A stretch of DNA of 62,096 nucleotides, counting the filler, from a bacterium (GTDB lineage: Bacteria > JALSQH01): NCBI GenBank assembly GCA_027004335.1. It is 9 parts of 9 records of this genome, joined end to end, with 100 filler letters (N's around TTAATTAATTAA, not from the genome) between each part and the next. Parts side by side here need not be neighbours in the genome. Positions count along the whole stretch, not along the records: positions 58,860 to 60,449 come from JALTID010000032.1; 8 more parts are not named here. One strand, 5' to 3'. The translations under genes were made by a program, and so were the position numbers. The notes under the pieces were generated by a model. It had not been told where the DNA came from. It saw only the letters and a program-made list of their open reading frames with translations, and searched no databases. Positions 3,231-62,096 of the stretch are shown piece after piece. The stretch's first letter is position 1. The number at the start of each line of letters is the position of its first letter.

Positions 3231-6047
3231 GTGAAGAGAAAGTTTCTCTTATATGTTCTTCTTTTATCATTTTTTATTCTGATATCCTATGGTTGCTCTG
3301 GCGGAGGGAAGGAGACTGCCCAGAAATTTTCCACTTATATTAATTTTATCCCAAGAGGAGAATACCCAAGACCAGATTTTGAGCGGGAGAACTGGATTAA
3401 TTTGAATGGGGAATGGAGATTCAGGTTTGATCCTTTTAATGAAGGGATGAATAATCACTGGTACCTCAAGCTTTCTCTTTTTACAGATAAAATAATTGTA
3501 CCTTTTCCGTGGCAGAGTTCTCTTTCAGGTATAGGAGATGTTCCTGAAGACTACGAGGATTACCCGGTTACCATTTTACCCAGGTATCAAAAACATAGGA
3601 TAGGATGGTATATGAGAACCTTTTACACTCCACCATGGGTTGAGGAAGGAAAAAGAGTTTTTCTCAATTTTGGAGCAGTTGACTGGCGTGCCGATGTTTG
3701 GATAAATGGTTTTTATGTTGGCAAACATGAAGGTGGTTATACACCGTTTTCTTTTGATATAACTGATTATCTTTTGCCTACTGGATTCAGGAATGTAGTT
3801 GTGGTGAGAGCTTATGATCCTGGTAATAGTGACGATGATCTAATTCCCATTGGTAAGCAGGGGGATATGTGGTATACACCTGTGAGTGGAATATGGCAAA
3901 CAGTTTATCTTGATGAGAGAGGTAAGGTTTATTTTGAGAATTACAGGGTCAAAACTGATCCTGACTCTGGAACAATTTTTATTAAGTTTGATATAGATAA
4001 TGAAGCTGATGGAGGAAGTTATTTGTTTTTCATTGATGTTTATGATAACTCAGGTGAACTTTATAAGAAACTTTTTACCATTTATCTGGATAAGGGTGAG
4101 AATGAGATCCCGTTAAGTTTTACCCTTGGAGGGTTTCAGTTATGGGAACCAGATAATCCGCATCTTTATCGTTTTAATACTAAATTGGAGGATGAAAGGG
4201 GCGTTGAGGATAGCTTTACCGGGTATTTTGGCATTAGAAAAATTGAGATAAAGTGGGCTCCAGGCCATTCTCCTCAGGATAACTCAGAATTGGTGGATCA
4301 ATATAAATATATTTATCTTAATGGGAAGCCACTCTTCATAAGAGGAGTTCTTGATCAGGGTTACAATCCATGGGGCCTTTATACCTATCCCAATGTTGCA
4401 ACTATGGAAAGTGAAATTAACTACATAAAATCTCTTGGCTTCAATGCGATAAGAATCCATATTAAAGGTCCTGACCCGTACAAGCTATATTTAGCCGATA
4501 AATTAGGACTTCTTGTTATATATGATATGCCCTCTTTGAAAATGTTTGCTGATGGTGAAGATCCAGTTGGCAGGGCAAATTATCTTTCAACAGCCAAAGG
4601 ACTTATTGAGAGAGACTGGAACCATCCTTCTATATTATGGTGGGTTATGTTCAATGAGGACTGGGGATTGCTTGAACCTCAGAGGCTAAAGTTTAATAGT
4701 GACCTTCAAAACTGGGTTAAAGAAGTTGTAAATACAGCCAAAAGCCTTGATCCTACCAGGCCTGTAGAGGATAACTCTGCAGGGGGGCTTGGTGCATATG
4801 ATCATCTATATACGGACATTCAGAGCTGGCATTTTTATATTAGAAGTTATGATCTCCTTATGGAGCATCTTAACTGGATTAGTGATAACACCTTCCCTGG
4901 TAGTACTGAAATATGGGTTCCAAATTATGTGCAGGATGGTCAGCCGTTGATAAATAGTGAATTTGGTGGCATAGATGTCTATGGCGGAAATCGGGATATT
5001 TCGTGGTACCTGCATTGGGAGATAAATGCTATGAGACTATTTCCCAAGATCCAGGGGTATGTTTTCACTGAGTTAAAAGATGTGGAGTTTGAACATAATG
5101 GACTTTTAAAATACGATGGCAGGGCTAAGATTCTTGGTTATGAAGAATTTGATGTAGATACCTCTCAAATTATTGGAGATAGGTTCATAGCAATAGATTC
5201 TCCTCCTGTTATAAAAGGTTATTCTGGTGAAATTACTTATGTACCTGTTTATTATTCAAATTTCTCTTCCAGCTCAGGAGGTTACTCTCTGAAATATACA
5301 ATTGTGGGCTGGAATGGAAATGGTGTAAAGATACTCACAGGTTCTTCTACAGGCATCAGGTTTAATGCCAAACCTTACGAAACTGTATTTATTGGGAAAG
5401 TAGAGGTGCTTTTTCCAGATTACAGATTTGCTGGAGCCTTGCTGTTCAATGTTGTTGACAGTAATGGAAACTATGTGGCAGGGAATTATGTAAATTTTTT
5501 TACGGATGCTCCAGATACATGTAACAATCAATTGTGTGCTATAGAAACTTCTCCAGCGGATTTCAGTGATGCTTCATGGAGTAGAAATTATGAAGCGGAT
5601 AAAAATTTCTTCTGGGGAAAAGGAAGTGGGTATGTAACCTACAAACTACCTCTAACCTATTCTGCAGATAAGATTAGTAGGATTGTTATATTATTGGAGG
5701 TTTCTTCTGGGGGAAATTCTCTTGCTAATAGAGAAACATCTCCTGAAACGCTCTGGAGTAATATCAAGATCTTAATTAATGGGGAAGAAAATAGTAGTGT
5801 GAAAGCAGGTGAATATGCTGACGCGAGGGGATTTTTATCCTATCTGAATTATCCGGAATTAGCTGGCTCCTACGGAAAAATGATAAGAGTCACTATCTCA
5901 GATCCCCGTGAAATAGAAAGACTCTCTGCGAACGGTTACATTACCATCACGATAAGAACCTCTGATGACAATGGAATTAAAATTTTTGGAAAAGATGTAG
6001 GTGAATACCCATGGGGTATTAAGGAAGTAATATATTTTAAACAATAA
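3231..6047 (+). CDS. Glycoside hydrolase family 2 lipoprotein (beta-galactosidase/glucuronidase-like)
   Basis: Lipobox SYGC; YPRPDF...WINLNGEW; LNFGAVDW; HEGGYTPF; SGIWQTV; NHPSI..W..FNEDWG; SEFGG. GTG at 3231 follows GGAGG. Confidence 0.88.
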   Translation: MKRKFLLYVLLLSFFILISYGCSGGGKETAQKFSTYINFIPRGEYPRPDFERENWINLNGEWRFRFDPFNEGMNNHWYLKLSLFTDKIIVPFPWQSSLSGIGDVPEDYEDYPVTILPRYQKHRIGWYMRTFYTPPWVEEGKRVFLNFGAVDWRADVWINGFYVGKHEGGYTPFSFDITDYLLPTGFRNVVVVRAYDPGNSDDDLIPIGKQGDMWYTPVSGIWQTVYLDERGKVYFENYRVKTDPDSGTIFIKFDIDNEADGGSYLFFIDVYDNSGELYKKLFTIYLDKGENEIPLSFTLGGFQLWEPDNPHLYRFNTKLEDERGVEDSFTGYFGIRKIEIKWAPGHSPQDNSELVDQYKYIYLNGKPLFIRGVLDQGYNPWGLYTYPNVATMESEINYIKSLGFNAIRIHIKGPDPYKLYLADKLGLLVIYDMPSLKMFADGEDPVGRANYLSTAKGLIERDWNHPSILWWVMFNEDWGLLEPQRLKFNSDLQNWVKEVVNTAKSLDPTRPVEDNSAGGLGAYDHLYTDIQSWHFYIRSYDLLMEHLNWISDNTFPGSTEIWVPNYVQDGQPLINSEFGGIDVYGGNRDISWYLHWEINAMRLFPKIQGYVFTELKDVEFEHNGLLKYDGRAKILGYEEFDVDTSQIIGDRFIAIDSPPVIKGYSGEITYVPVYYSNFSSSSGGYSLKYTIVGWNGNGVKILTGSSTGIRFNAKPYETVFIGKVEVLFPDYRFAGALLFNVVDSNGNYVAGNYVNFFTDAPDTCNNQLCAIETSPADFSDASWSRNYEADKNFFWGKGSGYVTYKLPLTYSADKISRIVILLEVSSGGNSLANRETSPETLWSNIKILINGEENSSVKAGEYADARGFLSYLNYPELAGSYGKMIRVTISDPREIERLSANGYITITIRTSDDNGIKIFGKDVGEYPWGIKEVIYFKQ

Positions 6048-6086: not shown

Positions 6087-6866
6087 ATGAAGAAAGTTTT
6101 TGTTCTTTTTTTAATTTTTACTGCTTCATCGTTCTTGTATCCTGAGAATATTCCTCTTTTTCTTCAAAAGGCTGTAGAGAATTTTAAGAAGATAAAATCT
6201 GTAAGAGCCGAAGTGGATCAGAAAGTGATTATTAGGGGAAGGGAATTTTATTATTCTGGTAATTATGTTGCTTCATTTCCTGGCATTTTTAAAGTAACTT
6301 ATTTTTACCCACAAAAGCAGATAATCTGGCTGGGAAAAGATGGAGTTTTTAACTGGTATATTCCTTCTAAAAATCTGCTTTATTATGTTCTGGATTTTGT
6401 AAAATTTAATGAGGGTACTCCTTCAAGAATCAATGGAGTAGTTCCTTCTTTGCCCTCTCTCCAGAGATTTTCTCCTTCGGGGGATACTTATAAGATTGCA
6501 GAAGCTTCAAAGAGATTTATCGGATTTCTCCACAGGGTTAATTATATAAGGCTTGAACCTCGGGGAAGATACTCAAGTTTCCCGGGGGTAGAATTATACA
6601 TCACAACGGGGGAATTTTTGCCATTAAGAATAATTATGACCAAAAATGGTAAGGTGATAGGTTCACAGTTTTTTAAAAAGTATAAAAAGGTGAATGGAGT
6701 TTTTTTCCCTTTTTTTGTAAGAGTTGAAGTAAAAAAAATAAATCTCGTAACTGAGACGAGTTACATGAATGTAGAAATTAATCCAGCTCTAAAAAAGGTA
6801 GATTTTAAGGTGTATCTGCCCGATGGAGTGGTGAGGAAAAACCTGATTTCTGCAGGAGTGAGATAA
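6087..6866 (+). CDS. Exported LolA-like / outer-membrane lipoprotein-sorting fold protein
   Basis: Signal peptide; KIKSVRAEVDQKV...SG...PG.FKVTY pattern; ends with the LolA-like NVEINPAL...F...LP.GV. Confidence 0.6.
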   Translation: MKKVFVLFLIFTASSFLYPENIPLFLQKAVENFKKIKSVRAEVDQKVIIRGREFYYSGNYVASFPGIFKVTYFYPQKQIIWLGKDGVFNWYIPSKNLLYYVLDFVKFNEGTPSRINGVVPSLPSLQRFSPSGDTYKIAEASKRFIGFLHRVNYIRLEPRGRYSSFPGVELYITTGEFLPLRIIMTKNGKVIGSQFFKKYKKVNGVFFPFFVRVEVKKINLVTETSYMNVEINPALKKVDFKVYLPDGVVRKNLISAGVR

Positions 6867-6883
6867 AAATTTGAGGTTAACAC

Positions 6884-6911
6884 TTGACAATTAAAGGGTA
6901 TTTTATATACT
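6884..6911 (+). promoter_or_regulatory. Sigma70-type promoter of the ihf-lpxC unit
   Basis: TTGACA (6884-6889), 16-nt spacer, TATACT (6906-6911). Confidence 0.6.
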
Positions 6912-6944
6912 TTTACATCAAAAGGAAATAGGAGGTATCTGGGT

Positions 6945-7232
6945 ATGAAAAAATCCGAGCTTGTAAAAATTCTTGCAGAGAAAAGTGGGTTGAATAGCAA
7001 ATTAGCAGCAAGGGTCGTTGACACATTTTTTGGCTCTATTAAAGAGGCTTTGAAAAACGGTGACAGAGTAGAGATAAGGGGTTTTGGTAGCTTTGAAATA
7101 AGAGAGTATGGTTCTTATGTGGGCATTAATCCCAAAACGAGGAAAAAGATTCAGGTCCCTCCAAAGAAGTTACCCTTTTTTAAAGCGGGAAAAGAGCTAA
7201 GAGAAAGAGTGGACAAAGGGAAGGAAAAGTGA
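6945..7232 (+). CDS. ihfB: Integration host factor subunit beta / HU-family DNA-binding protein
   Basis: MKKSEL...GDRVEIRGFGSF...G.NPKT...VP.KK.PFFKAGKELRERV; SD AGGAGG. Confidence 0.85.
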   Translation: MKKSELVKILAEKSGLNSKLAARVVDTFFGSIKEALKNGDRVEIRGFGSFEIREYGSYVGINPKTRKKIQVPPKKLPFFKAGKELRERVDKGKEK

Positions 7233-7242
7233 GGGGTTAATC

Positions 7243-8163
7243 TTGCTTAAACAGAGAACTGTCAGAGAAGAGACAAGTATTTTAGGGAAGGGTCTACATT
7301 CTGGAAACAGAGTCAGTATGAATATTAAACCTGCTCCACCAAACAGTGGAATAACTTTTGTCAGAAATGATCTTTCTGGTAAGCCGAAAATAAAGGTTGA
7401 TGTGGATAATATTGGAGATGGTTTTCTTGCCACTACTCTCAATGTGGGAAGAATTCAGGTCAAGACAGTGGAACATTTTCTTTCTGCATTGTATGCTCTG
7501 GGTGTGGATAATCTGATTGTAGAACTTGATTCTCCTGAAGTTCCTATAATGGATGGAAGTGCAAGACCTTTCATCTATCTTCTCAGGAGGGATGTGGGAA
7601 TAAAGGAGCAGAAAGCTGCCAAGAAATTTATAAAAATCACAAAGAGAGTGGAAGTTTCTGATGATGATAAGTATCTGAGAGTTGAACCTGTTGATGCCCC
7701 AAGGTTGTTGATTGATTTTACAATTTTCTTTCCCCACAGAGTGATTGGAATACAGAATTATCTTTTTGAGTTTTCCACCAGAAGATATATTGAGGAAATC
7801 AGTAAGGCTCGAACTTTTGTTGCAGAATCTGAGGTAAAAAGATTGTGGAAAAAAGGATACGCATTAGGTGGTTCCCTTGATAATGCTGTGGTGGTAGGAG
7901 ATTTTGGAATTCTCAATAAGGATGATCTAAGATACGAAAATGAGTTTGTGAGGCATAAGATTCTGGATATTATCGGTGATCTTTACCTTCTTGGTTCCCC
8001 TGTATTCGGGAAAGTTGTTGCTTATAAATCTGGCCATACCCTTAACCACATGCTGGTAAAGAAAGTTGTTCAGGAAAAAGCTTATGAGATTGTGACTCTT
8101 CCTCTGGAAAAGGGAGAGAAGATATTCAATTTTAAACTTGAGCCTGCTTTTTTTACTGACTAA
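7243..8163 (+). CDS. lpxC: UDP-3-O-acyl-N-acetylglucosamine deacetylase
   Basis: QRT...GKGLHSG, TVEHFLSAL, EVPIMDGSA, SKARTF, GGSLDNAVV, EFVRHKILDIIGDL, KSGH. Confidence 0.96.
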   Translation: MLKQRTVREETSILGKGLHSGNRVSMNIKPAPPNSGITFVRNDLSGKPKIKVDVDNIGDGFLATTLNVGRIQVKTVEHFLSALYALGVDNLIVELDSPEVPIMDGSARPFIYLLRRDVGIKEQKAAKKFIKITKRVEVSDDDKYLRVEPVDAPRLLIDFTIFFPHRVIGIQNYLFEFSTRRYIEEISKARTFVAESEVKRLWKKGYALGGSLDNAVVVGDFGILNKDDLRYENEFVRHKILDIIGDLYLLGSPVFGKVVAYKSGHTLNHMLVKKVVQEKAYEIVTLPLEKGEKIFNFKLEPAFFTD

Positions 8164-9062
8164 TCTTCTGGTGGCTGATATATCCCGGGTTTTTCTTCAA
8201 TTACTTCTTTCAATATGCGAGCAAGTTTTTCTTCCTGACCCACAGACATCAGGTGAACACCATCTCCAAATTCTGCCACGGAGTAGATAAGGTCTTTGAC
8301 TATTTTTATTCCCTCTTCTGCTGGGTCGTATGATCTATCCAGAATTTCAATTAGATGATCAGGAACTCTTACCCCTGGGACCTTTGCATTAAGGAATCTT
8401 GCCATCTTTGCAGATTTCAGAAGTAGTATCCCTGCGAGGATGTATGTATTCATTTTTTTCGCTTCCTTATAAAATTTATGGAAAATATCAACATCGTATA
8501 CAGCCTGTGTCTGGATAAACTGAACTCCTGCTTTCACTTTTTTTTCCAGCCTGAGAAGCTGCAGTTCCATATTGGCCGAGCATGGGTTGATGACTCCTCC
8601 TATGAAATAATCTGTCTTCCCGTCCAGAGGATGATCATTAAAATCATGTCCCTCATTCAATTTTTTTATGGTTGAGATAAGAGTGAATGAGTCAAGATCA
8701 AAAACTGGCTTTGCCTGTGGATGATCCCCTGATGAGATATGGTCACCTGTGAGGGCAAGAACATTTCTTATTCCCAGTGCATATGCTCCAAGAAGTTCGG
8801 ACTGCAGGGCAAGACGGTTTCTGTCTCTACAGGTTAGCTGCATAATTGGTTCAACCCCCCCCTGAAGTAGAATAGATGCTGAAGCCACAGGACTCATTTT
8901 TACAATGGCTCGCTGGTTATCGGTAAGATTAACAGCTACTGCTTTGCCTCTGTAAAGATTTGCACTGCGCTTTAATTTCTCACTGCTTGTCCCCTTTGGA
9001 GGACCTGCCTCTGCAGTGATTACAAATTTTCCACCCTTCAGATAATCTTTCAACAAGCTCAT
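8160..9062 (-). CDS. metF: Methylenetetrahydrofolate reductase, MetF subunit
   Basis: NLTDN, QLTCRDRNRLALQSELLGA, ALTGD, KVKAGVQFIQTQ, GVHLM; directly downstream of metV. Confidence 0.92.
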   Translation of the reverse strand: MSLLKDYLKGGKFVITAEAGPPKGTSSEKLKRSANLYRGKAVAVNLTDNQRAIVKMSPVASASILLQGGVEPIMQLTCRDRNRLALQSELLGAYALGIRNVLALTGDHISSGDHPQAKPVFDLDSFTLISTIKKLNEGHDFNDHPLDGKTDYFIGGVINPCSANMELQLLRLEKKVKAGVQFIQTQAVYDVDIFHKFYKEAKKMNTYILAGILLLKSAKMARFLNAKVPGVRVPDHLIEILDRSYDPAEEGIKIVKDLIYSVAEFGDGVHLMSVGQEEKLARILKEVIEEKPGIYQPPED

Positions 9063-9716
9063 TTATAGCCCCTTTAAAAAGAGTTTAGAAGGTTTGGATG
9101 ATTTTGAAAAATCTCTTGGTTCTCTCAACTTGGTGAAATTTGCAAGTTGCCCTCTCTCTTTTAGCTTTTCATAGATTTCCACCCACACGCATTTCATCTC
9201 TGGATTTACTTCACAATTGCCGTTTTCCAGAACTCCTCCGCATGGTCCGTTCAAAAGACCCTTTGGACACCTTGTTACAGGGCAGATCCCCGCTGTTTCG
9301 TTTAGTATGCAATGACCACACATTGAGCAATATTCAGTGAATCTACCATATCTCTGAATTGTCCCGAGGAAAAGGGTATCAACAGCGGTAAATACAGGTA
9401 TATCTGTGGCACTGGCTACTGCCTGAACCCCTGCGCCGCATGCCATAACGAGTATTGCCTCTGTGTCTTTAATTTCTTCTTTATGAATTCTTAATTCTTT
9501 CTTCACAAGGGGAATATGGCAAGTTTCTTTTGGGACAACCCAGCCGGTAATTTTCTTTCCCGATTTTTCAAGCTGTTTTTTCATCTCCATTACTTCTTTT
9601 TCCCCGCCAGCATGAGCCGCTGTGGCACATTCTCCACATCCCATCAGAAAGATATTTTCATACATGGAAAGTACTTCGATAATTTCTTCGAAGGGCTTCA
9701 ATTTGCTAACTATCAT
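9063..9716 (-). CDS. metV: MetV, Fe-S/Zn small subunit of methylene-THF reductase (MTHFR C-terminal domain protein)
   Basis: GCGECAT, MACGAGVQ, CSMCGHC...CPVTRCPKGLLNGPCGG...CE...CVW; adjacent to metF. Confidence 0.88.
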   Translation of the reverse strand: MIVSKLKPFEEIIEVLSMYENIFLMGCGECATAAHAGGEKEVMEMKKQLEKSGKKITGWVVPKETCHIPLVKKELRIHKEEIKDTEAILVMACGAGVQAVASATDIPVFTAVDTLFLGTIQRYGRFTEYCSMCGHCILNETAGICPVTRCPKGLLNGPCGGVLENGNCEVNPEMKCVWVEIYEKLKERGQLANFTKLREPRDFSKSSKPSKLFLKGL

Positions 9717-9764
9717 GATTAAAATAATTTACCAGAATGGGGGAAAATTATCAATTAAACAGAA

Positions 9765-10412
9765 TCATTCAACGGGAGGAAGAATACTTAAAAGTTCAGA
9801 AATTGAATCTATTACGAATTCAGGGTGGTATTCTTTTGCAATCTTTTCTGAATCTCCGTAGCCATAAGCTACCAGTATGGAATGGACTCCTGCCCGTTTT
9901 GCTACTATCATATCATTTACACCATCTCCCACGATATAGGTGTTTTCTCTTGTTGAATTTGTGGAGGATAGAATAAATTCAGCAGTTTCTGAGGCAGGTT
10001 TTTTTACAGGAAGAGTATCTTCACCTACCACAAATGAAAAAATGTGAGTAAGGCCGAAGTAATTTAATATTTTGTTTACAATTCTCTCTGGCTTATTTGT
10101 CAAAATGGCAAGATTATAGTTTCTATTTTTCAATTCGGAAAGAGTAGTTCTTACATCCGGATAAAGATGGGTGTATTTTACCGGGTTTTTTTCATATACC
10201 CTCAGAAATTTTTTGCGAAGATTCTCCGGAGAGGGGTATTCCGGAAGAGCTCTTTCCAGCAGCTTATTTACCCCGTCCCCGATATAAGAAGTTATCTCTT
10301 CAATCGTTTTTTCTCCATACCCGAGTTCCTTCCTTAGTAAATTAACATTGTAGGCTATATCCCGATTGGTATCTGCAAGAGTTCCGTCAAAGTCAAATAT
10401 GACCAGCTTCAT
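9765..10412 (-). CDS. HAD-IA hydrolase, phosphoglycolate phosphatase (Gph)-like
   Basis: IFDFDGTLADT, LTNKP, KKP, VGDG.NDM..A..AG, YGYG. Confidence 0.85.
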   Translation of the reverse strand: MKLVIFDFDGTLADTNRDIAYNVNLLRKELGYGEKTIEEITSYIGDGVNKLLERALPEYPSPENLRKKFLRVYEKNPVKYTHLYPDVRTTLSELKNRNYNLAILTNKPERIVNKILNYFGLTHIFSFVVGEDTLPVKKPASETAEFILSSTNSTRENTYIVGDGVNDMIVAKRAGVHSILVAYGYGDSEKIAKEYHPEFVIDSISELLSILPPVE

Positions 10413-15575: not shown

Positions 15576-15675
15576 NNNNNNNNNNNNNNNNNNNNNNNNN
15601 NNNNNNNNNNNNNNNNNNNTTAATTAATTAANNNNNNNNNNNNNNNNNNNNNNNNNNNNNNNNNNNNNNNNNNNN
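15576..15675. other. Artificial contig spacer (N44-TTAATTAATTAA-N44)
   Basis: The same 100-bp spacer with stops in all six frames recurs at 21156-21255, 26725-26824, 32287-32386, 37837-37936, 43339-43438, 58760-58859 and 60450-60549. Confidence 0.98.
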
Positions 15676-21155: not shown

Positions 21156-21257
21156 NNNNNNNNNNNNNNNNNNNNNNNNNNNNNNNNNNNNNNNNNNNNT
21201 TAATTAATTAANNNNNNNNNNNNNNNNNNNNNNNNNNNNNNNNNNNNNNNNNNNNAC

Positions 21258-26724: not shown

Positions 26725-26916
26725 NNNNNNNNNNNNNNNNNNNNNNNNNNNNNNNNNNNNNNNNNNNNTTAATTAATTAANNNNNNNNNNNNNNNNNNNN
26801 NNNNNNNNNNNNNNNNNNNNNNNNCAACTTTCGTAGGAATATTTTCCATATACGGTTTTGCCGGATTCTCAAACTGATAATCTTTATTGATAAACAACCA
26901 TGATTCTCCAAGATCG

Positions 26917-27233: not shown

Positions 27234-27888
27234 ACTTTGATGCATCTTGCTGTTTTGCAAGCTTGTTAATTTTCTTGGTAAGATCTTCCACCTTTTTCTC
27301 TACATTTTTAAGTCTCTTATTGATCTCTTCAATTTGGTCTCTTGTTGGGATATCTACTTTTTCAATTGCTTTCTTGATCCCATCAAGGACTTTTGCCTCA
27401 AATTCATCCTGACTTGTTCTGAGCTTTTCAGTAAGATCATTAACTCTTGCAATGATCTCTTTCTGTGATGATTCTCTGTAACTTGTCACTTTCTGGAGCA
27501 AATTCTGAAGCTCGTTCTGAACTGAGTTGAATTTTTCTTTTGCAGTTTCCACATTTTCCTTTACAATGTCGTTAACTTTCTTCACAACATCTTCTCTGAT
27601 TAATGTTGCCATGGTTCTTACCTNNNNNNNNNNACTCTGAATCGTCTCTTGAAGCTTATTCAAAATTTCAATCTGTGTCTTTAACTTTTCTGTAAGTTCT
27701 TTAACTCTCCCCTCAAATTCTGCTGATTTTTCTTCGCCTTTTTTATATATTTCTTTTTTAGAAGTAAGGAGTTCTGATAACTTCCTTGTTTCTTCTTCAA
27801 GAACTCCATATACACCTGCTACAACTATAAGTGATCTTTTCAATGTTGCTTCAACATCCTTCAGTTTTTCCTGAATATTCCTGACCAT
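27232..27888 (-). CDS. Phasin / PHA granule-associated-like coiled-coil protein (spans a 10-N gap)
   Basis: All-helical amphipathic sequence; LIVVAGVYG..EE near the N-terminus; PhaF/PhaI-like DIPTRDQIEEINKRL..VE; SD AAGGAGG before ATG 27888. Confidence 0.65.
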   Translation of the reverse strand: MVRNIQEKLKDVEATLKRSLIVVAGVYGVLEEETRKLSELLTSKKEIYKKGEEKSAEFEGRVKELTEKLKTQIEILNKLQETIQSXXXXVRTMATLIREDVVKKVNDIVKENVETAKEKFNSVQNELQNLLQKVTSYRESSQKEIIARVNDLTEKLRTSQDEFEAKVLDGIKKAIEKVDIPTRDQIEEINKRLKNVEKKVEDLTKKINKLAKQQDASK

Positions 27889-32286: not shown

Positions 32287-32386
32287 NNNNNNNNNNNNNN
32301 NNNNNNNNNNNNNNNNNNNNNNNNNNNNNNTTAATTAATTAANNNNNNNNNNNNNNNNNNNNNNNNNNNNNNNNNNNNNNNNNNNN

Positions 32387-37774: not shown

Positions 37775-37938
37775 TTTTTCTCCTCCTTGTTTTCCAATCC
37801 TTCTTCATCTGTAAGAAATCTTTGCTTCCTTAAATANNNNNNNNNNNNNNNNNNNNNNNNNNNNNNNNNNNNNNNNNNNNTTAATTAATTAANNNNNNNN
37901 NNNNNNNNNNNNNNNNNNNNNNNNNNNNNNNNNNNNGA

Positions 37939-43338: not shown

Positions 43339-43438
43339 NNNNNNNNNNNNNNNNNNNNNNNNNNNNNNNNNNNNNNNNNNNNTTAATTAATTAANNNNNN
43401 NNNNNNNNNNNNNNNNNNNNNNNNNNNNNNNNNNNNNN

Positions 43439-53294: not shown

Positions 53295-56090
53295 ATGTAT
53301 AGTTCATTTAAGATGGTAAAATTAATTTCCATATCGCTTCTTTTGCTTTTCCTTTTCAGTAACCAGGTTCCCGCCCAGGAAGGAGTAATATTAGGTACTG
53401 AGACACTCTCCACCGAAACAAATCCACCAGGGCCCGCTCTTCGACAACCTGCGGAGGAGGAATCTTCTGTAAAATTTTACAAAGGTGAAGCTCTCCCTTA
53501 TTATATGGGATCCAATCTTTACGGTGATTTTGGAATAATAAGAATACATTCAGCATATACTCCATATCCGGGATCTTTTTTCATAAATGGAAATTTAAGA
53601 TTCTGGAGTCAAAAGGATTATCTTGGAGAAGGAATGTATCATAAGAGACTTGAAACTTCCTCTGGTTTTGGGATAGCACTCACAAACTTTATCTATTTTT
53701 TCTTAAATGTTTTCAGCAGTTCCCATTATTACCAGAATACTCTTTTTTCCGGGAGCGTTCTTGAATCTTCAAGGCTTATTCAATCAAATGGTGATCTCCT
53801 CTGGGGACTAAAATTAGGCTATGATGCTCCTACAGTATTTTCATTTGCCTTTATTCCCTATTTCAAACTCTATTCCAAAATTTCAGAAATCGGTCCTGAT
53901 ACAAAAACTTTTTCCTATGGGAGCCTATTAGCATTCACCTTTGATCTATCCAGACAGGCACAACCAGTACCTCTCAGAATTCACCTTAATATAGGTTACT
54001 TTATGGATAACGCAGCAAAAATGGAGTTAGCAGGTTCAGAAAATATCAATAATGAAGCAGCACTGGGGATTCCCTATGATGACGATACAATAATCTGGGG
54101 AACTGGTTTTGAATTTCCCCAAAAATACTTTGAACTTTACCTTGAATACACAACAGAGCAATATTTTAACCTGAACAAGTCAACTTATCCTGGTAGTTCC
54201 GAACTTAAACCTTCAAGAAGTTATTCCCAAAATCCCCAAAGGATAACTCCTGGCGTCAGATTCTTTCCATACAAGGGATCATATATAGATTTTGCAGTTG
54301 ATCTCGGCTCCCCTCTTCTTGGATTTGGCAAGGGTTTTGATTACTTGGGTACAGGGAATAAAGAAGAGATAATGCCTAACTGGCAGTTTCTCGTTCAACT
54401 TGGTTATGCTTTTCAGCCTCCAAAGCCACAGCTTCCCAAAGAAGGTATGATCATTGGTACTGTTTATGATGCCGATTCAGGAAAGCCCATAGAGGGAGCA
54501 ATCATCAGTTTTCCTGGAAGGAATCTTACAGCTCTTTACTCAGATAAAAATGGTCACTTCTACTCATACAAGTTCCGAAAAGGTACTGTAGAAGTAAAAG
54601 CAGAGAAGAAAGGATATAAAACGGAAAGTAAGACTGCGATAATCGTTCCACTTAGAAGAATCCCCATAGTATTCAGGCTCAAACCTTCTATTAAGACAGG
54701 GAATTTAATAGTGAAAGTTTATTCACCTTCAGGTAAGCCGCTTTTTGCTACTCTGAACCTTACCAAGCCAGGAGGGGAAGAAATAGCAAAACAGACCACT
54801 GAACCGCAGACAGGAGCAGCTTCCTTCACTCTTGTTGAAGGAGAATATTATGGAACAGTTAAATCTGAAGGAATGGTGCCGGTCAAAGCGAAGTTCAAAG
54901 TAGTAAGAAGAAAGACAAAAGTCTATAGAGTGGTACTCAAACCTGCAATGGGTAACATCGCTGGAAAAGTAACCAATGAAAACAGAGAAGGGATCCCTGC
55001 TGTAGTATTCTTCACTGGTAAGAAAAATCTAAGAATTTCTAGTGACCCATTAACTGGTAACTACTCAACCAAGCTTCCCGCAGGGCGGTACACCATAAGA
55101 GCAGAAAGTAGAGGTTATGGAGCTTACTCAGCAACAGTTACAATTCCTGCAGGCAAATCTATTGTGCTCAATATTATTCTGAAGAAAATCAAATCTGCTG
55201 GTACCGTTGCAGGTACAGTGACTTCCATCAATGGTAAGCCCCTGGCAGGAGTGGTGCAATTTACTGGTCCTGTAACTCAGAGAGCTCCTACCGATCCATC
55301 AACAGGTACATACAAGATTCAACTTCCTGCAGGCACATATCAGGCAATGGCTGTAGTTTCGGGGTTTAAACCGAAAACTCAGCAAGTAGTTGTGGAGGTC
55401 GGGAAAACCACTCCATCTAACTTCGTGCTTGAACCTGCCCAGACGGTTGGAATAATAAAAGGAACGGTTTACGGGCTTGTTAAAAATAAGAAGAAACCTA
55501 TCCAGGCAGTAATCACATTTCCAGGTGAAACCATATCAAACATAACTTCCGATCCAGACACAGGCCAATTCGTTGCAAAAGTTCCTGCCAAGAAACTGCA
55601 GGTAAAAGCTGGTGCCATGAACTTCAAGTCTCGGATCAAAGAGGTAGAAGTAAAACCTGGACAAACTGTGGAAGTAACATTCGTACTGCAACCCTATAAG
55701 TTAATCAAAGTAACCAAGAAGAAAATTGTAATTAAACAGAAAATATACTTCCAGACGGCTAAAGCAATAATCAGACCTCGGTCATTTCCTGTTCTGGATG
55801 AAATCGTGCAGGTGCTGAAAGATAATTCCTGGATCAGACTGAGAATTGAGGGGCATACTGATAGTGTTGGTCCCGCTGAATATAATTTAAGACTTTCTCA
55901 GAAAAGGGCTAATGCTGTCAGGAATTATCTGATTGCACATGGTATTGATCCATCAAGACTGGAGGCAGTAGGTTATGGTGAGTCCAGACCCATTGCTCCA
56001 AATACCACACCTGAGGGTAGAGCAAAAAATAGAAGAGTTGAATTTGTAATAATTTCCCACAGCTTTGAAGAAACAGTTCCACAGAAATAA
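53295..56090 (+). CDS. Outer-membrane protein: N-terminal beta-barrel + 5 carboxypeptidase-regulatory-like repeats + OmpA peptidoglycan-binding domain
   Basis: Signal peptide; alternating aromatic strands ending VQLGYAF; five G.I.G.V...GKP...A repeats; IEGHTD..G...YN..LSQ.RA..V...GYGESRP...GR.KNRRVEF. Confidence 0.88.
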   Translation: MYSSFKMVKLISISLLLLFLFSNQVPAQEGVILGTETLSTETNPPGPALRQPAEEESSVKFYKGEALPYYMGSNLYGDFGIIRIHSAYTPYPGSFFINGNLRFWSQKDYLGEGMYHKRLETSSGFGIALTNFIYFFLNVFSSSHYYQNTLFSGSVLESSRLIQSNGDLLWGLKLGYDAPTVFSFAFIPYFKLYSKISEIGPDTKTFSYGSLLAFTFDLSRQAQPVPLRIHLNIGYFMDNAAKMELAGSENINNEAALGIPYDDDTIIWGTGFEFPQKYFELYLEYTTEQYFNLNKSTYPGSSELKPSRSYSQNPQRITPGVRFFPYKGSYIDFAVDLGSPLLGFGKGFDYLGTGNKEEIMPNWQFLVQLGYAFQPPKPQLPKEGMIIGTVYDADSGKPIEGAIISFPGRNLTALYSDKNGHFYSYKFRKGTVEVKAEKKGYKTESKTAIIVPLRRIPIVFRLKPSIKTGNLIVKVYSPSGKPLFATLNLTKPGGEEIAKQTTEPQTGAASFTLVEGEYYGTVKSEGMVPVKAKFKVVRRKTKVYRVVLKPAMGNIAGKVTNENREGIPAVVFFTGKKNLRISSDPLTGNYSTKLPAGRYTIRAESRGYGAYSATVTIPAGKSIVLNIILKKIKSAGTVAGTVTSINGKPLAGVVQFTGPVTQRAPTDPSTGTYKIQLPAGTYQAMAVVSGFKPKTQQVVVEVGKTTPSNFVLEPAQTVGIIKGTVYGLVKNKKKPIQAVITFPGETISNITSDPDTGQFVAKVPAKKLQVKAGAMNFKSRIKEVEVKPGQTVEVTFVLQPYKLIKVTKKKIVIKQKIYFQTAKAIIRPRSFPVLDEIVQVLKDNSWIRLRIEGHTDSVGPAEYNLRLSQKRANAVRNYLIAHGIDPSRLEAVGYGESRPIAPNTTPEGRAKNRRVEFVIISHSFEETVPQK

Positions 56091-56121: not shown

Positions 56122-56706
56122 ATGAAAGTTATAGGCTTAACAGGTGGAATTGGCACCGGTAAAAGCACAGTAGCTGAATTATTTAGGAAAAGAGGAGTTC
56201 CAGTAATTAATCTTGACCAGATTGTAAGGGAGCTTCAAAAACCGGGGAGAGAAGTGTATAGAAAAATAGTTTTAGAATTCGGAGAAAAAATTTTAGAGGA
56301 GAACGGAGAAATAAACAGGAGAAAGTTAGGAGAGATTGTTTTTTCTGATGCTGGTAAAAGAGAAAAACTGAACAGGATAGTACATCCCCCTGTTCTTGAT
56401 AAGTTAAAAGATACTCTCTTTAATCATGAAAAACAGGGAGTATCATTAGTTATTGTGGAGATTCCCCTGTTATTTGAACTAAGACTTGAGAATCTTTTTG
56501 ACGCAGTAGTAGTAGTTTATGCTCCAGNNNNNNNNNNTGGTATAACAAAAAAAGGAGCAGAAGAAAGGATTAAAAGCCAGATGTCTATTGAAGAAAAGAA
56601 GAAAAAAGCAGACTATCTCATAGACAACTCAGGGACAATTGATTTAACTAAAAAGCAATTTGAAAGTATATATCAAAGACTTATAAACAAAACTGTAAAG
56701 GTGTAA
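56122..56706 (+). CDS. coaE: Dephospho-CoA kinase (spans a 10-N gap)
   Basis: IGLTGGIGTGKST, LN.IVHP, EIPLLFE, RI.SQM, ADY.IDNSG. Confidence 0.95.
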   Translation: MKVIGLTGGIGTGKSTVAELFRKRGVPVINLDQIVRELQKPGREVYRKIVLEFGEKILEENGEINRRKLGEIVFSDAGKREKLNRIVHPPVLDKLKDTLFNHEKQGVSLVIVEIPLLFELRLENLFDAVVVVYAPXXXXGITKKGAEERIKSQMSIEEKKKKADYLIDNSGTIDLTKKQFESIYQRLINKTVKV

Positions 56707-58759: not shown

Positions 58760-58906
58760 NNNNNNNNNNNNNNNNNNNNNNNNNNNNNNNNNNNNNNNNN
58801 NNNTTAATTAATTAANNNNNNNNNNNNNNNNNNNNNNNNNNNNNNNNNNNNNNNNNNNNGATTTTAATAAGTCATACATCTTTTTAGAAGAAAAAGAGGT
58901 GTGCAG

Positions 58907-59530
58907 ATGGGTTTAAAGAATATTTTTAGGGGTCTCTTTAAAAAACCAAATAAGGAAGAGCCTCCTAAACCAGAAGAAGTACCGAAAGAAGATTCTTTTT
59001 CTAAGCAAGAAAATTTTCCTCCACCAAAGATAGAAGATTTTAACAGTGAGATTCCAGAACTACCAGATCTGGACATCCCAGAGGAGCTTGGCGGGATAGA
59101 TAAATTCGAACCTCACACCTCAGTTAAACCTCACCCTAAAACAGGGATAATCCCCCCACCTCCACCAGAGGGTGAGGATACTTCTTCTCTACCTGACCTT
59201 CCACCACTGGACTTCTCAAAGAAAATTAACCCGCTAAAAAAGGAATATGAGAAGAAAGAGGGGGAAAAGAAAGAGGCAAAGCCAAAAACTACCTTTATCA
59301 AGAAAAATTATGAGTATGTAATTGAAGACGAATTTTCAAAGATTTACACAAACCTTGAAGAAGTCCAGACCCAAGCAAGAAACAGCCACAGATACCTTGA
59401 AATGATAAAGCTTCACAATAAAAAGGAAAGAAAGATGAAAGAATTTAAAGAATTAATGTTAAAGATTTACTCAGAACTGGATTATATCCAGAGAATAATG
59501 TTTGAAAAGGGTGAAAAAAATGGCAGATGA
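58907..59530 (+). CDS. Hypothetical protein: amphipathic N-terminus, Pro/acidic linker, C-terminal ~65-aa coiled coil (DPANN-like family)
   Basis: SD GAGGTG before ATG 58907; MGLKNIFRGLFKK; LPDL/PPPPP repeats; C-terminal helix ending LDYIQRIMFEKG. Confidence 0.8.
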   Translation: MGLKNIFRGLFKKPNKEEPPKPEEVPKEDSFSKQENFPPPKIEDFNSEIPELPDLDIPEELGGIDKFEPHTSVKPHPKTGIIPPPPPEGEDTSSLPDLPPLDFSKKINPLKKEYEKKEGEKKEAKPKTTFIKKNYEYVIEDEFSKIYTNLEEVQTQARNSHRYLEMIKLHNKKERKMKEFKELMLKIYSELDYIQRIMFEKGEKNGR

Positions 59531-59750
59531 ATTTGAGAAAACTGTTTTTGTTAAGATTGATGATTATGAACAGGTTTTGACCAGGGTTAATAATTTAAAT
59601 CAAAACCTTAAATCAGCCAAAGCAATACTGGATGAAATTAAAAAGATAAAGCAGAGTGAGAGCTCTGAAATTGAAAACTGGGAAAAAGAGCTTGAAGCAA
59701 TGCTGGAAAAGGTTGATTACATAACTAAAACAATGGCAAGGTCAGGATAA
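59520..59750 (+). CDS. Hypothetical 76-aa coiled-coil protein (FVKIDDY family, DPANN-like)
   Basis: SD GGTGA before ATG 59520; VFVKIDDY followed by a heptad helix ending W.KELE...KVDYI. Confidence 0.8.
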   Translation: MADEFEKTVFVKIDDYEQVLTRVNNLNQNLKSAKAILDEIKKIKQSESSEIENWEKELEAMLEKVDYITKTMARSG

Positions 59751-59751
59751 A

Positions 59752-60165
59752 ATGAGTTTGTTTGTTAAGCTTGAGGATCCTGTAAAGCTTAAGAAAGCTC
59801 TTCTTATTACTAAGATGGCTGCTCTTAATAATATGAAGAGATATGAAGAGTGCAAGCAGTTTAAAAAGGAAATAAAGGAAAAGGCAGCTTCTATTAATGA
59901 GATTTTTATCAATGTGCCCCCTCTCGTAGAAGAGATTAAGAGGATGCTTCCAGAAGTGGATATAAAGAAACTTACCTTTGAGAAAGGCATGCTAAAATGT
60001 GAAATCTGCGGTAAGAGATTTAAGACAGAACAGGGATTAAAGATACACCAGGCGAATGTGCATGGTATTAAAAAAGGCACTGGCGGCGAGGGAAAGAGTC
60101 AAACAGAGGTTGACAGGCTCACAAAGGAACTGGAAGACATAGAGAGAGAGCTGAAAGACCTTTAG
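59752..60165 (+). CDS. Hypothetical coiled-coil protein with internal C2H2 zinc finger (DPANN-like family)
   Basis: LFVKLEDP..LKK.LL; long helix ending LP; CEICGKRFKTEQGLKIHQANVH; tail EVDRL..EL.DIE.EL..L. Confidence 0.82.
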   Translation: MSLFVKLEDPVKLKKALLITKMAALNNMKRYEECKQFKKEIKEKAASINEIFINVPPLVEEIKRMLPEVDIKKLTFEKGMLKCEICGKRFKTEQGLKIHQANVHGIKKGTGGEGKSQTEVDRLTKELEDIERELKDL

Positions 60166-60376
60166 TTCTGTTAAGTTGGTGTAACATCAGGGGTAAGGGT
60201 AGTTTGTGCAGTGGGGCAAATTTGGGAAAAATCCTGCAAGGATTTTCCTCTTAATCGCTGTTATGTGGTGAGCCTGCAAGAAAAACTGCTGGAGAAAATC
60301 TTGGATTTTCGTAAGCACAGTATGACGCAAGGAAAAGTTCGTAACATTTATATGGAAACTCTTTTTTATTATCAGT

Positions 60377-60449
60377 ATGACAATTAATTATTATTATCAA
60401 TCTGAGAAATACAAACCTGAAAAAGTAGATATTTTATTAATTGGTGAAG
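60377..60449 (+). CDS. 5' fragment of a hypothetical protein, possibly uracil-DNA-glycosylase-superfamily-like
   Basis: MTINYYYQSEKYKPEKVDILLIGE runs into the contig end; TTTATA lies about 25-30 nt upstream. Confidence 0.4.
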
Positions 60450-60549
60450 NNNNNNNNNNNNNNNNNNNNNNNNNNNNNNNNNNNNNNNNNNNNTTAATTA
60501 ATTAANNNNNNNNNNNNNNNNNNNNNNNNNNNNNNNNNNNNNNNNNNNN

Positions 60550-61908
60550 AAGTACAGGACAGGTGTGAAGAAGAGATCTCCCCCGATGGAACTTATTGAC
60601 AATACAGGGAGTTTCTTTCTTTCCGCAACAGTGAATGGAAAGCGATACACCTATTTTCCCTTCTCAGTATCCCGGGGAGTTAAATTTTATATATTAAAAT
60701 ACAAAAATTTTTCTTTTGCCGCTACAGAGGAAATTAAGTATAAAAGGAAGGGTTATTTACTTAACACTGTTGTTGTTTACCATAATAACCTTACCGAGCC
60801 CGTGGATCTAAAATTATCATTTGAACTTTTCTATAGAATCTCAGGAAAGAGTTCCCGCTACCATTTCAAGGGCGCAGTGGTAGACCTTGGTGGAAAATTG
60901 AAAAAGGTTACCATGAAAACTCTGAAGAAAAAAGGAGATATGCTCTTTAGTGGCGAGATTCACTGGGCAGGTTTTGCAGATAGTTATTTTCTTCAGGCGC
61001 TTCTGATGAAGTCTAACAATCCAGTGATCAGAGTTCATAGATATTCCAACGAGCTGATGCAGATGGAGATAACCGTTTATGATAAGGCTCTTGATCCAGG
61101 AAAATGTGTAGGTAGAAAGTTGGGAATTTATATTGGGCCCAAGAAGTTATCTGTTTTAAAAGAAGTTGGGAACGACCTTCATATAGCGGTGGATTTCGGC
61201 ATATGGGGCATAGTTGCAAGACCCATTCTTGCCCTTCTGAATCTCTTTAACATAATTTTTCATAACTACGGGGTAAGTATAATTCTCCTTACGATACTGA
61301 TAAAAATTCTTTTCTACCCGCTTACCCTTAAAAGTTACAGGTCTATGGCAAAACTTAAGGAATTACAACCAGTTATGGAGGAAATTAAGAAAAAATATGC
61401 TGATGATAAGGAGAAAATGAACCAGAAGTTAATGGAGCTTTACAAGGAATATAAGGTAAATCCTATGGGGGGATGTCTGCCCACTCTCCTTCAGCTTCCT
61501 ATTTTTATAGCTCTCTATTATGTCTTGCTTAAAGCTATAGAACTGAGGCATGCCCCCTTCTTCCTCTGGATGAATGATCTGAGTGCCCCTGATAATCTGG
61601 TGGTTTTTGCTCTTGGTGGATTTCATCTCCCCATCAGGATCCTGCCACTTCTCATGGGAGCGACGATGTACTATCAGCAAAAATTGACTCCCTCCACCAT
61701 GGACAAGTCTCAGCAAGCAATTTTTACCTTTCTCCCAATAATTTTTACTTTTCTTTTTTATGGACTCCCATCCGGCTTGATGCTCTACTGGTCAACGAAT
61801 AACATAATTTCTATTTATCAACAGCTCAGAATTAATAAGCTTCTTGAATCAGAAGGAGATAAGGAGAGTAAGAAGGTAAAAAAGTTTAGGAAAAAGATAA
61901 AAAAATGA
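60550..61908 (+). CDS. yidC: Membrane protein insertase YidC (5'-truncated)
   Basis: W.G....YF, YIGPK, VDFG, NYG.SII.LT..IK..F.PL, MAK...LQP, LYK...VNP.GGCLP.L.Q.PIF, ELRHAPF..W..DLS.PD, PSGL.LYW. Confidence 0.96.
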   Translation, partial: KYRTGVKKRSPPMELIDNTGSFFLSATVNGKRYTYFPFSVSRGVKFYILKYKNFSFAATEEIKYKRKGYLLNTVVVYHNNLTEPVDLKLSFELFYRISGKSSRYHFKGAVVDLGGKLKKVTMKTLKKKGDMLFSGEIHWAGFADSYFLQALLMKSNNPVIRVHRYSNELMQMEITVYDKALDPGKCVGRKLGIYIGPKKLSVLKEVGNDLHIAVDFGIWGIVARPILALLNLFNIIFHNYGVSIILLTILIKILFYPLTLKSYRSMAKLKELQPVMEEIKKKYADDKEKMNQKLMELYKEYKVNPMGGCLPTLLQLPIFIALYYVLLKAIELRHAPFFLWMNDLSAPDNLVVFALGGFHLPIRILPLLMGATMYYQQKLTPSTMDKSQQAIFTFLPIIFTFLFYGLPSGLMLYWSTNNIISIYQQLRINKLLESEGDKESKKVKKFRKKIKK

Positions 61909-62096
61909 AAAAGAGTTTCTTCTTGCTTGCAATTTCCTTATTATTCATGTTTGCCTGTAGCGGTACCTATAAGCCAGAGTGCAAAACCCCAATTCCCGGT
62001 CAGTGGGCAGAACCTGAGAATATTATTCCCTTTTATGATCCTCAATGGGGAGAAGGAGGTCTTGTTTTGAACACCAACCTGAAGGGACAATTTTGC
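61905..62096 (+). CDS. Lipoprotein of unknown function (3'-truncated by window end)
   Basis: ATGA overlap with the yidC stop; MKKSFFLLAISLLFMFAC lipobox. Confidence 0.7.
   Translation, partial: MKKSFFLLAISLLFMFACSGTYKPECKTPIPGQWAEPENIIPFYDPQWGEGGLVLNTNLKGQFC

Follow-up and report, generated by a model that had tools for sequence, protein, structure and literature searches.

The window analysed here, a stretch of 62,096 nucleotides (nt) assembled as part of a bacterial genome (GCA_027004335.1), contains three consecutive open reading frames (ORFs) on the plus strand of one short contig, which we call ORF1, ORF2 and ORF3. All three are real protein-coding genes. With modest confidence we read them as an operon of the Woesearchaeota/Nanobdellota type (DPANN archaea) that encodes a membrane-tethered coiled-coil hetero-complex and that lies in a mis-binned contig. 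The three proteins probably form a scaffold hung from the inner face of the cell membrane and, as far as can be inferred, represent an undescribed protein system working like known membrane tethers. The genes, with the lengths of their products in amino acids (aa), are arranged as follows:

58907–59530, plus strand: ORF1, 207 aa, putative membrane-tether subunit with an amphipathic tip, a disordered Pro/Glu/Lys arm and a strand-plus-helices module.
59520–59750, plus strand: ORF2, 76 aa, stand-alone copy of this module.
59752–60165, plus strand: ORF3, 137 aa, with a long helix (residues 10–65), one C2H2 zinc finger and a C-terminal heptad helix.

In agreement with an earlier note on this DNA, the three co-directional frames are tightly packed, ORF1 and ORF2 overlapping by 11 nt and ORF2 and ORF3 being separated by a single nucleotide. 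The start of ORF1 was assigned to the ATG at 58907 and not to the upstream GTG at 58901, because 12 of 12 aligned homologues begin with MG, and the ATG of ORF2 was chosen because its homologues share the start MADEFEK. A word-indexed search of 5.8 billion proteins yielded, besides the queries themselves, five homologues of ORF1 (53–75% identity), six of ORF3 (52–85%) and, with a two-sequence profile, 15 of ORF2 (51–92%). When the ORF1 profile was passed with HMMER over all of 1.84 billion cluster representatives, nine proteins were found at E ≤ 0.001, eight of them full length. Hence, the family is real, yet narrow as far as sequence detects.

The only relative that carries an organism name is archaeal. 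This protein (P0015), which is 55% identical to ORF2, is listed by NCBI as 'hypothetical protein DRJ48_02615 [Candidatus Woesearchaeota archaeon]'. Its sequence matches without any difference the ORF2 of a metagenome contig of 9444 nt, referred to here as L002. On L002 the same trio occurs in the same order, at 6643–7338, 7344–7571 and 7573–7989, again with a 1-nt gap between ORF2 and ORF3 (7571/7573). The three window proteins differ in how well they match their L002 counterparts: ORF2 is conserved best, at 53–55% identity, while ORF3 reaches 42% and ORF1 31–36%. The ESM Atlas clusters nearest to ORF1 consist of hypothetical proteins of ~215 aa that are 100% archaeal, mostly from Nanobdellota/Woesearchaeota (score 0.89, 200 of 256 features), while those nearest to ORF3 are small archaeal C2H2 proteins. 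Two short elements were noticed upstream of ORF1:

58862–58869, plus strand: TTTTAATA, TATA-box-like, 37 nt 5' of the ORF1 ATG, a putative promoter element.
58896–58901, plus strand: GAGGTG, Shine-Dalgarno-like, 5 nt 5' of the ORF1 ATG.

The octamer TTTTAATA also precedes ORF1 in L002, 41 nt upstream, and the stretch AAAGAGGTGT at the ribosome-binding site is common to both loci. Such a succession of TTTTAATA and AAAGAGGTGT would fit an archaeal TATA box followed by a short leader with a Shine-Dalgarno site. Taken together, the named Woesearchaeota relative, the archaeal Atlas clusters, the trio on L002 and the shared upstream elements support the DPANN label given in the earlier note. Most likely, the contig is of archaeal origin and was placed among bacterial contigs by mis-binning.

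The trio is alone on its contig of 1590 nt (58860–60449), one of nine contig pieces in the window that are split by eight artificial spacers of 100 nt (N44-TTAATTAATTAA-N44). Two of these spacers flank the trio:

58760–58859, no strand: artificial contig-joining spacer (N44, TTAATTAATTAA, N44); the real contig begins at 58860.
60450–60549, no strand: artificial contig-joining spacer; the YidC gene past it belongs to a different contig.

As the trio sits on its own contig, the gene of a methyl-accepting chemotaxis protein (MCP) before it and the YidC gene after it are not its true neighbours; the spacers join separate pieces, and neighbourhood arguments across them are therefore void. On the other pieces, 29 of the 33 large ORFs scanned gave Pfam matches, bacterial in type, including LpxC, a sigma-54 activator, T2SSE (the ATPase of the type II secretion system, T2SS), SpoIID and Hsp70. 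An OmpA-family protein, CoaE, a YidC with a periplasmic domain and the MCP likewise point to a bacterial source of these pieces. Contigs of ~1.6 kb are of the size most liable to mis-binning, and since the trio contig is most likely foreign, its genes are not to be credited to the binned bacterium.

The linkage of the three genes, on whose conservation the earlier note had made its operon depend, is kept in L002, the single distant locus read as DNA. The trio is flanked there by genes for GyrA (gyrA), ScpB (scpB), a winged-helix protein, a dCMP deaminase, two AAA_18 kinases, a THUMP methyltransferase and an HTH_20 membrane protein, and L002 also has weak matches to archaeal Trm14 and archaeal-type kinases. 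None of ftsZ, sepF, minD or pilus genes lies beside the trio in L002, the only real neighbourhood read, so that the role in division, shape or host attachment put forward in the earlier note is not supported. A metagenome scan with the ORF1 profile gave 596 pattern matches, with at least one locus, L002, among the matches listed. The sizes of the contigs that carry homologues match between the proteins (39628, 47661, 10113, 1392, 1439, 1495, 968 and 1747), which suggests that homologues of two or all three proteins share contigs; the closest relatives, 85–92% identical, are found on contigs of 39.6 and 47.7 kb.

Three segments of ORF1 stand out:

58907–58945, plus strand: ORF1 residues 1–13, putative membrane-targeting amphipathic sequence, proposed from the alignment, the hydrophobic moment and the likeness to a SepF peptide.
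59036–59092, plus strand: ORF1 residues 44–62, acidic/proline linear motif DF..EIPELPDLDIPEELG within the arm, from a 13-sequence alignment.
59291–59515, plus strand: ORF1 residues 129–203, C-terminal module of 75 aa, from the AlphaFold2 (AF2) model; paralogous to ORF2.

At the tip, all 13 aligned sequences have M1 and G2, D5 is nearly invariant, and the family follows the pattern MG[FLI]xD..K, with MGFLDSVKGVFKK in L002 as an example. For the N-terminal 12-mer of the window protein, the hydrophobic moment is 0.66 and the net charge +4; over residues 2–13, moments of 0.44–0.71 and net charges of +1 to +4 were obtained for 13 of 13 family members. The tip also shares the pattern MGFxD..K with the SepF membrane peptide of M. 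smithii, MGFTDALKRSLGF, which is reported to bind vesicles (PMC8178401). Because of this amphipathicity and this likeness, it is plausible that the N-terminus tethers ORF1 to the membrane.

The tip is followed by a long arm, residues 14–125, made up of 21% P, 17% E, 15% K and 7% D with a net charge of −10; both the amphipathic N-terminus and the Pro/acidic linker described in the earlier note are thus present. In the AF2 model residues 1–128 are without regular structure, the block means of the predicted local distance difference test (pLDDT) ranging from 45 to 71. Within the arm, the motif has the pattern DF..EIP[ED]LP[DE].[DE].PE, in which D44, F45, E48, I49, P50, L52, P53, P58 and E59 do not vary among the 13 sequences; from this pattern it would look like a short linear docking motif. 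It runs on into ...EELGGID in a near subfamily, the GID part being present in five of the 13 sequences. Its proline spacing is reminiscent of MIT-interacting motifs of the MIM2 type, a resemblance on which we do not rely. The C-terminal module is modelled with higher confidence (pLDDT block means 81–96) as a beta-hairpin (130–137) and two helices (140–158 and 161–200). No cysteine is present in ORF1.

Judging from profile alignments, ORF2 is likely a stand-alone paralogue of this C-terminal module. The hhalign alignment of the two runs end to end, covers 64 columns and contains a single gap (P = 8e-4, probability 24%). To control for the helical, Lys/Glu-rich composition of the proteins, the columns of the target alignment were shuffled 60 times; the observed score of 22.5 compares with 10.4 ± 2.2 for the shuffles, none of which reached it (0/60), and with 14.6 for the reversed alignment. 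Plain BLASTP of ORF2 against the ORF1 C-terminus gave an E-value of 0.02 at 18% identity. The paralogy with about one gap that had been claimed before is therefore supported by the profile comparison and its shuffle control. Residues 13–72 of ORF2 follow one unbroken heptad register with a hydrophobic occupancy of 0.82 at the a and d positions, a value reached by 0 of 2000 shuffles.

The N-terminus of ORF3, whose start the earlier note had called similar, was not shown to be a third copy of the module, as the profile comparison gave no clear excess over shuffles. The global score of ORF2 against ORF3 residues 1–82 was 12.8 versus 3.8 ± 2.7 for the shuffles, with 1 of 60 reaching it, and the '...FEKG' ending and 'LFVK' start shared with ORF3 are hints only.

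ORF3 was modelled by AF2 from an alignment of eight sequences (mean pLDDT 72) with a helix at 10–65, a beta-beta-alpha unit at 80–104 and a second helix at 120–136. Two features of it stand out:

59998–60063, plus strand: ORF3 residues 83–104, C2H2 finger, C-x2-C-x3-F-x5-L-x2-H-x4-H.
60103–60162, plus strand: ORF3 residues 118–137, C-terminal helix with an a/d heptad occupancy of 1.00 (p 0.001).

The residues C83, C86, F90, L96, H99 and H104 of the finger are invariant in eight of eight sequences and are surrounded by basic residues. They conform to the C2H2 signature (C-x2-4-C-x12-H-x3-5-H with a Phe/Leu core), and the model shows the corresponding beta-beta-alpha shape, with strands at 81–82 and 89–90 and a helix at 93–104. 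Two ORF3 homologues, P0006 and P0007, carry a precomputed PF00096 match, and Foldseek superposes the finger on C2H2 fingers, e.g. 2drp_D (rmsd, root mean square deviation, 0.7 Å over 27 columns). Only the finger superposes; for the whole ORF3 model, Foldseek against PDB and BFVD gave 0 matches at E ≤ 0.001. The N-terminal strand of ORF3 is not modelled (pLDDT <50 for residues 1–7). The statement of the earlier note that no enzyme motif explains the cluster overlooked the canonical C2H2 finger.

To evaluate the assembly of the three proteins, a complex of ORF1 residues 122–207 and ORF3 with ORF2 as the scored partner was predicted. The score was 0.34 as compared with 0.14 for the best of three controls, which is graded as 'weak support'; the runs agree in at least 83% of the contacts and the pLDDT of the partner is at least 74. 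In the calibration, 58 of 80 solved complexes and 2 of 110 mismatched pairs attained the mark; with a score of 0.60 or less, it was attained by only 7 of those 80 solved complexes and by both passing mismatches. The calibration applies only roughly here, with an own alignment for each chain and three chains. As gene coupling, paralogy and heptads make an assembly likely beforehand, we read the result as mild support. The hetero-oligomeric bundle postulated in the earlier note is thus weakly supported.

Based on these features we infer membrane binding, hetero-assembly and the holding of a cargo, which could be combined in the following way. As a cationic amphipathic helix, the first ~13 residues of ORF1 would lie along the membrane on its cytoplasmic side, and the Pro/Glu/Lys-rich arm of ~110 residues would serve as a flexible, disordered spacer whose invariant acidic-proline motif may recruit a partner. 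The 75-aa module of ORF1 would pair with ORF2 and with the long helix of ORF3 to give a coiled-coil hetero-complex. At the end of the tether, the C2H2 finger and the terminal heptad helix of ORF3 might then hold nucleic acid or protein.

Comparison with known families and systems gave partial resemblances. ORF1 and ORF2 had no match above the cut-offs in Pfam, NCBIfam, PHROGs and PADLOC, and in a sequence-profile search of the PDB the best E-value was 0.14 when ORF2 served as the profile and 0.17 when ORF1 did, all coiled-coil noise. Foldseek returned eight matches to the ORF1 model, all with E > 4, and among the 48,161 chains compared with VIA-align the highest Z was 6.0, to generic long helices, which is below the meaningful level for helical models. 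The ESCRT-III/Snf7 core showed no Pfam match and only the generic coiled-coil matches of Z ≤ 6.0 in VIA-align; the survey PMC10936438 on ESCRT contains none of the terms DPANN, Woesearchae, Nanoarchae and C2H2. The trio was not found in the full-text literature on zinc-finger coiled-coil, membrane-anchor and SepF division topics in Woesearchaeota/DPANN.

SepF (PF04472), which anchors FtsZ to the membrane in archaea and Gram-positive bacteria, shares with ORF1 the layout of an amphipathic tip, a flexible linker and a C-terminal interaction domain. By moment and positive charge, the N-termini of 13 of 13 ORF1 family members would qualify as amphipathic in the SepF sense. On the other hand, ORF1 has no PF04472 match at E ≤ 1, the SepF core is alpha/beta whereas the C-terminal part of ORF1 is modelled as a beta-hairpin with two long helices, the linker of ORF1 is about twice as long, and the trio adds a paralogue and a zinc-finger partner. 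The second comparison is CdpC (HVO_0399), which, in a preprint, is described as the haloarchaeal membrane anchor of FtsZ1, with an amphipathic helix, a long linker that is disordered and, at the C-terminus, a zinc-finger domain that binds FtsZ1; its zinc fingers are reported to be essential and the protein to be fast-evolving and lineage-restricted (bioRxiv 10.64898/2026.07.16.738847). ORF1 resembles CdpC in having an amphipathic sequence and a long disordered linker. However, CdpC is described there as a single chain with two zinc ribbons, one N- and one C-terminal, whereas ORF1 is devoid of cysteine and the sole finger of the trio is a C2H2 finger (beta-beta-alpha) on the separate protein ORF3. 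The preprint describes the remote DPANN relatives of CdpC as multi-zinc-ribbon proteins without a linker (bioRxiv 10.64898/2026.07.16.738847).

No sequence relation between CdpC and the trio was found. The bacterial protein ZipA is a membrane anchor with a Pro/Gln-rich linker and an FtsZ-binding domain; it has a transmembrane helix and a globular alpha/beta C-terminal domain. By analogy, ORF1 would likewise join a membrane attachment by a long proline-rich arm to a small C-terminal module, and the family searches gave no match of ZipA to the trio. With classical C2H2 fingers (PF00096), ORF3 shares the exact signature and the beta-beta-alpha shape, but its finger is single, is placed between a 55-residue helix and a heptad helix and belongs to an archaeal operon.

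These likenesses allow a bolder interpretation, which we consider unlikely, of the trio as a DPANN-specific divisome or chromosome-to-membrane tether. ORF1 would be anchored to the membrane by its SepF-like tip and would dock on the division machinery through its motif, and the ORF2/ORF3 coiled coil would present the zinc finger to FtsZ or DNA, making the trio a split analogue of SepF or CdpC. The ...EELGGID sequence in the near subfamily of ORF1 recalls the acidic, GID-centred C-terminal peptide of FtsZ that archaeal SepF binds according to PMC8178401. The neighbourhood on L002 holds chromosome-handling genes, but one locus is too little to lean on. If this interpretation were true, the reduced cells of DPANN would divide or segregate with an adaptor that is not known from other organisms.

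The genomes of DPANN archaea are very small, and hardly any of their cell biology has been tested; a compact, lineage-conserved operon that belongs to no described family and has the layout of a Z-ring anchor is a candidate for a missing piece of their division or chromosome handling.

Returning to the favoured reading of a mis-binned DPANN operon for a membrane-tethered coiled-coil complex, several observations weigh against it. The tip of ORF1 is not given as a helix by AF2 (pLDDT about 55), and its membrane binding is a prediction from sequence features. The long helices lack a single heptad register both in ORF1 (residues 140–200, p 0.49) and in ORF3 (residues 10–65, p 0.28), each having one 28-residue window at 0.875. 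In the local hhalign comparison of ORF2 with ORF3 residues 1–82 the E-value is 0.056 and 3 of 60 shuffles reach it, and the C-terminus of ORF1 scores no better than shuffles against the N-terminus of ORF3. Going by its calibration, the complex prediction would be wrong in more cases than it is right if the assembly had not already been probable, and it returned no interface. The finger of ORF3 has a Pfam E-value of 5e-5 and falls just short of the cut-offs, with 24.0 versus 25.2 bits for the PF00096 gathering threshold and 24.2 versus 27 bits. The related loci read as DNA amount to one, L002. Finally, the trinucleotide composition of the trio contig correlates with that of the rest of the window with r = 0.96, as compared with 0.95 ± 0.03 for random bacterial pieces of 1590 nt. 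The composition is thus indistinguishable and gives no sign of a foreign origin, which leaves some room, at low odds, for gene transfer into the bacterium.

Such a transfer, from a DPANN archaeon into the bacterium to which the trio would then truly belong, is quite improbable. The composition and the GC content of 0.362, both indistinguishable from the other contigs, speak for it, but the single relative with an organism name comes from Woesearchaeota, 100% of the Atlas neighbours are archaeal and the arrangement of TATA-like box and Shine-Dalgarno site is common with the archaeal-looking L002. Moreover, the sole match in a scan of 185,579 species genomes with ORF3 was spurious, and mis-binning most readily affects contigs of this size (1.6 kb). 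We consider it unlikely that the trio forms a soluble complex around the ORF3 finger with a regulatory or nucleic-acid-binding role. ORF1 and ORF2 would be oligomerisation partners, the N-terminus of ORF1 would have no membrane role, and the whole might, for instance, be a small complex acting on chromatin or in transcription in an archaeon with a reduced genome. The canonical finger, invariant in all eight sequences and surrounded by basic residues, would be in line with this, as would the small archaeal C2H2 proteins nearest to ORF3 in the Atlas, the position of the L002 trio near gyrA, scpB and the winged-helix protein, and the AF2 model without a helix at the ORF1 tip. A single zinc finger, however, binds DNA only weakly by itself, and the invariant MG, the tip that is cationic and amphipathic in all 13 sequences and the long arm rich in Pro would be hard to explain in a soluble complex; there is also the resemblance to the tested SepF membrane peptide (PMC8178401).

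The trio could also be a cassette of an archaeal virus or another mobile element, as archaeal viruses commonly encode small proteins of the C2H2 and coiled-coil types. A weak PHROG match of the finger (E = 9e-4, 'zinc-finger domain protein') and structural matches to C2H2 proteins of viruses, each with an E-value above 0.05, would agree with such an origin. We regard it as very improbable, since scans of 2.9 million viral contigs with ORF3 or with the ORF1 profile confirmed no relative, the L002 trio lies among the housekeeping genes for GyrA, ScpB, dCMP deaminase and kinases, and neither the trio contig nor L002 has integrase, capsid or repeat features. Chance or mis-called ORFs in AT-rich DNA have a negligible probability and are refuted by the conservation data: the three plus-strand proteins have homologues at 42–92% identity with invariant motifs, their order is kept in L002 and the AF2 models show confident helices, although a low GC content of 0.36 favours long random ORFs and a 112-aa antisense ORF overlaps ORF3.

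The remainder of the trio contig is mostly non-coding:

60166–60449, plus strand: contig remainder, a 211-nt non-coding stretch followed by the first 24 codons of a plus-strand ORF that is truncated where the contig stops.

A near-perfect hairpin (GGGAAAAATCC ... GGATTTTCC) is located in the non-coding stretch past ORF3 at 60224–60249 (plus strand). Rfam and tRNA scans of the trio contig each gave 0 matches, and the folding of 60166–60376 compared with shuffles (z = 0.79 on the plus and −1.47 on the minus strand) does therefore not indicate a structured RNA. The fourth gene that starts at 60377 (60377–60449, plus strand, MTINYYYQSEKYKPEKVDILLIGE..., 24 codons) is too short to be identified; it differs from the gene that follows the L002 trio, which encodes the HTH_20 membrane protein.

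On L002, at 3580–4691 on the minus strand, ScpB is followed by a 196-aa protein with only a C-terminal winged helix and no ScpA/kleisin Pfam match, which may be a very divergent kleisin partner in that DPANN lineage. The spurious ORF3 match in the species genomes, at one locus (L001) of an acidobacterial metagenome-assembled genome (MAG), is a protein resembling tetratricopeptide repeat (TPR) proteins, without a zinc finger and in a VgrG/Rhs setting. This 426-aa TPR-like protein (9026–10306, plus strand) lies between a VgrG gene and a 1466-aa Rhs-repeat gene of a Pyrinomonadaceae MAG, a type VI secretion setting with no relation to the trio.

The spacers of the window, which have stops in all six frames, are at the following positions:

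15576–15675, 21156–21255, 26725–26824, 32287–32386, 37837–37936, 43339–43438, 58760–58859 and 60450–60549: all artificial contig-joining spacers.

Two N10 scaffold gaps are additionally present at 27624–27633 and 56528–56537, the second one within coaE. The pieces at 1–58759 and 60550–62096 resemble one Gram-negative bacterium of ~37–39% GC. Their genes include those for LpxC, a sigma-54 response regulator, an ATPase of the T2SS or of type IV pili (T4P), methylenetetrahydrofolate reductase (MTHFR), a FadB/thiolase pair, DnaK, SpoIID, CoaE and YidC, and the MCP gene is cut off by its contig end. At 53295–56090 (plus strand) a 931-aa protein of outer-membrane type is encoded, in which about five CarboxypepD_reg/PEGA repeats are combined with an OmpA domain at the C-terminus; this is an unusually long architecture for the OmpA family.

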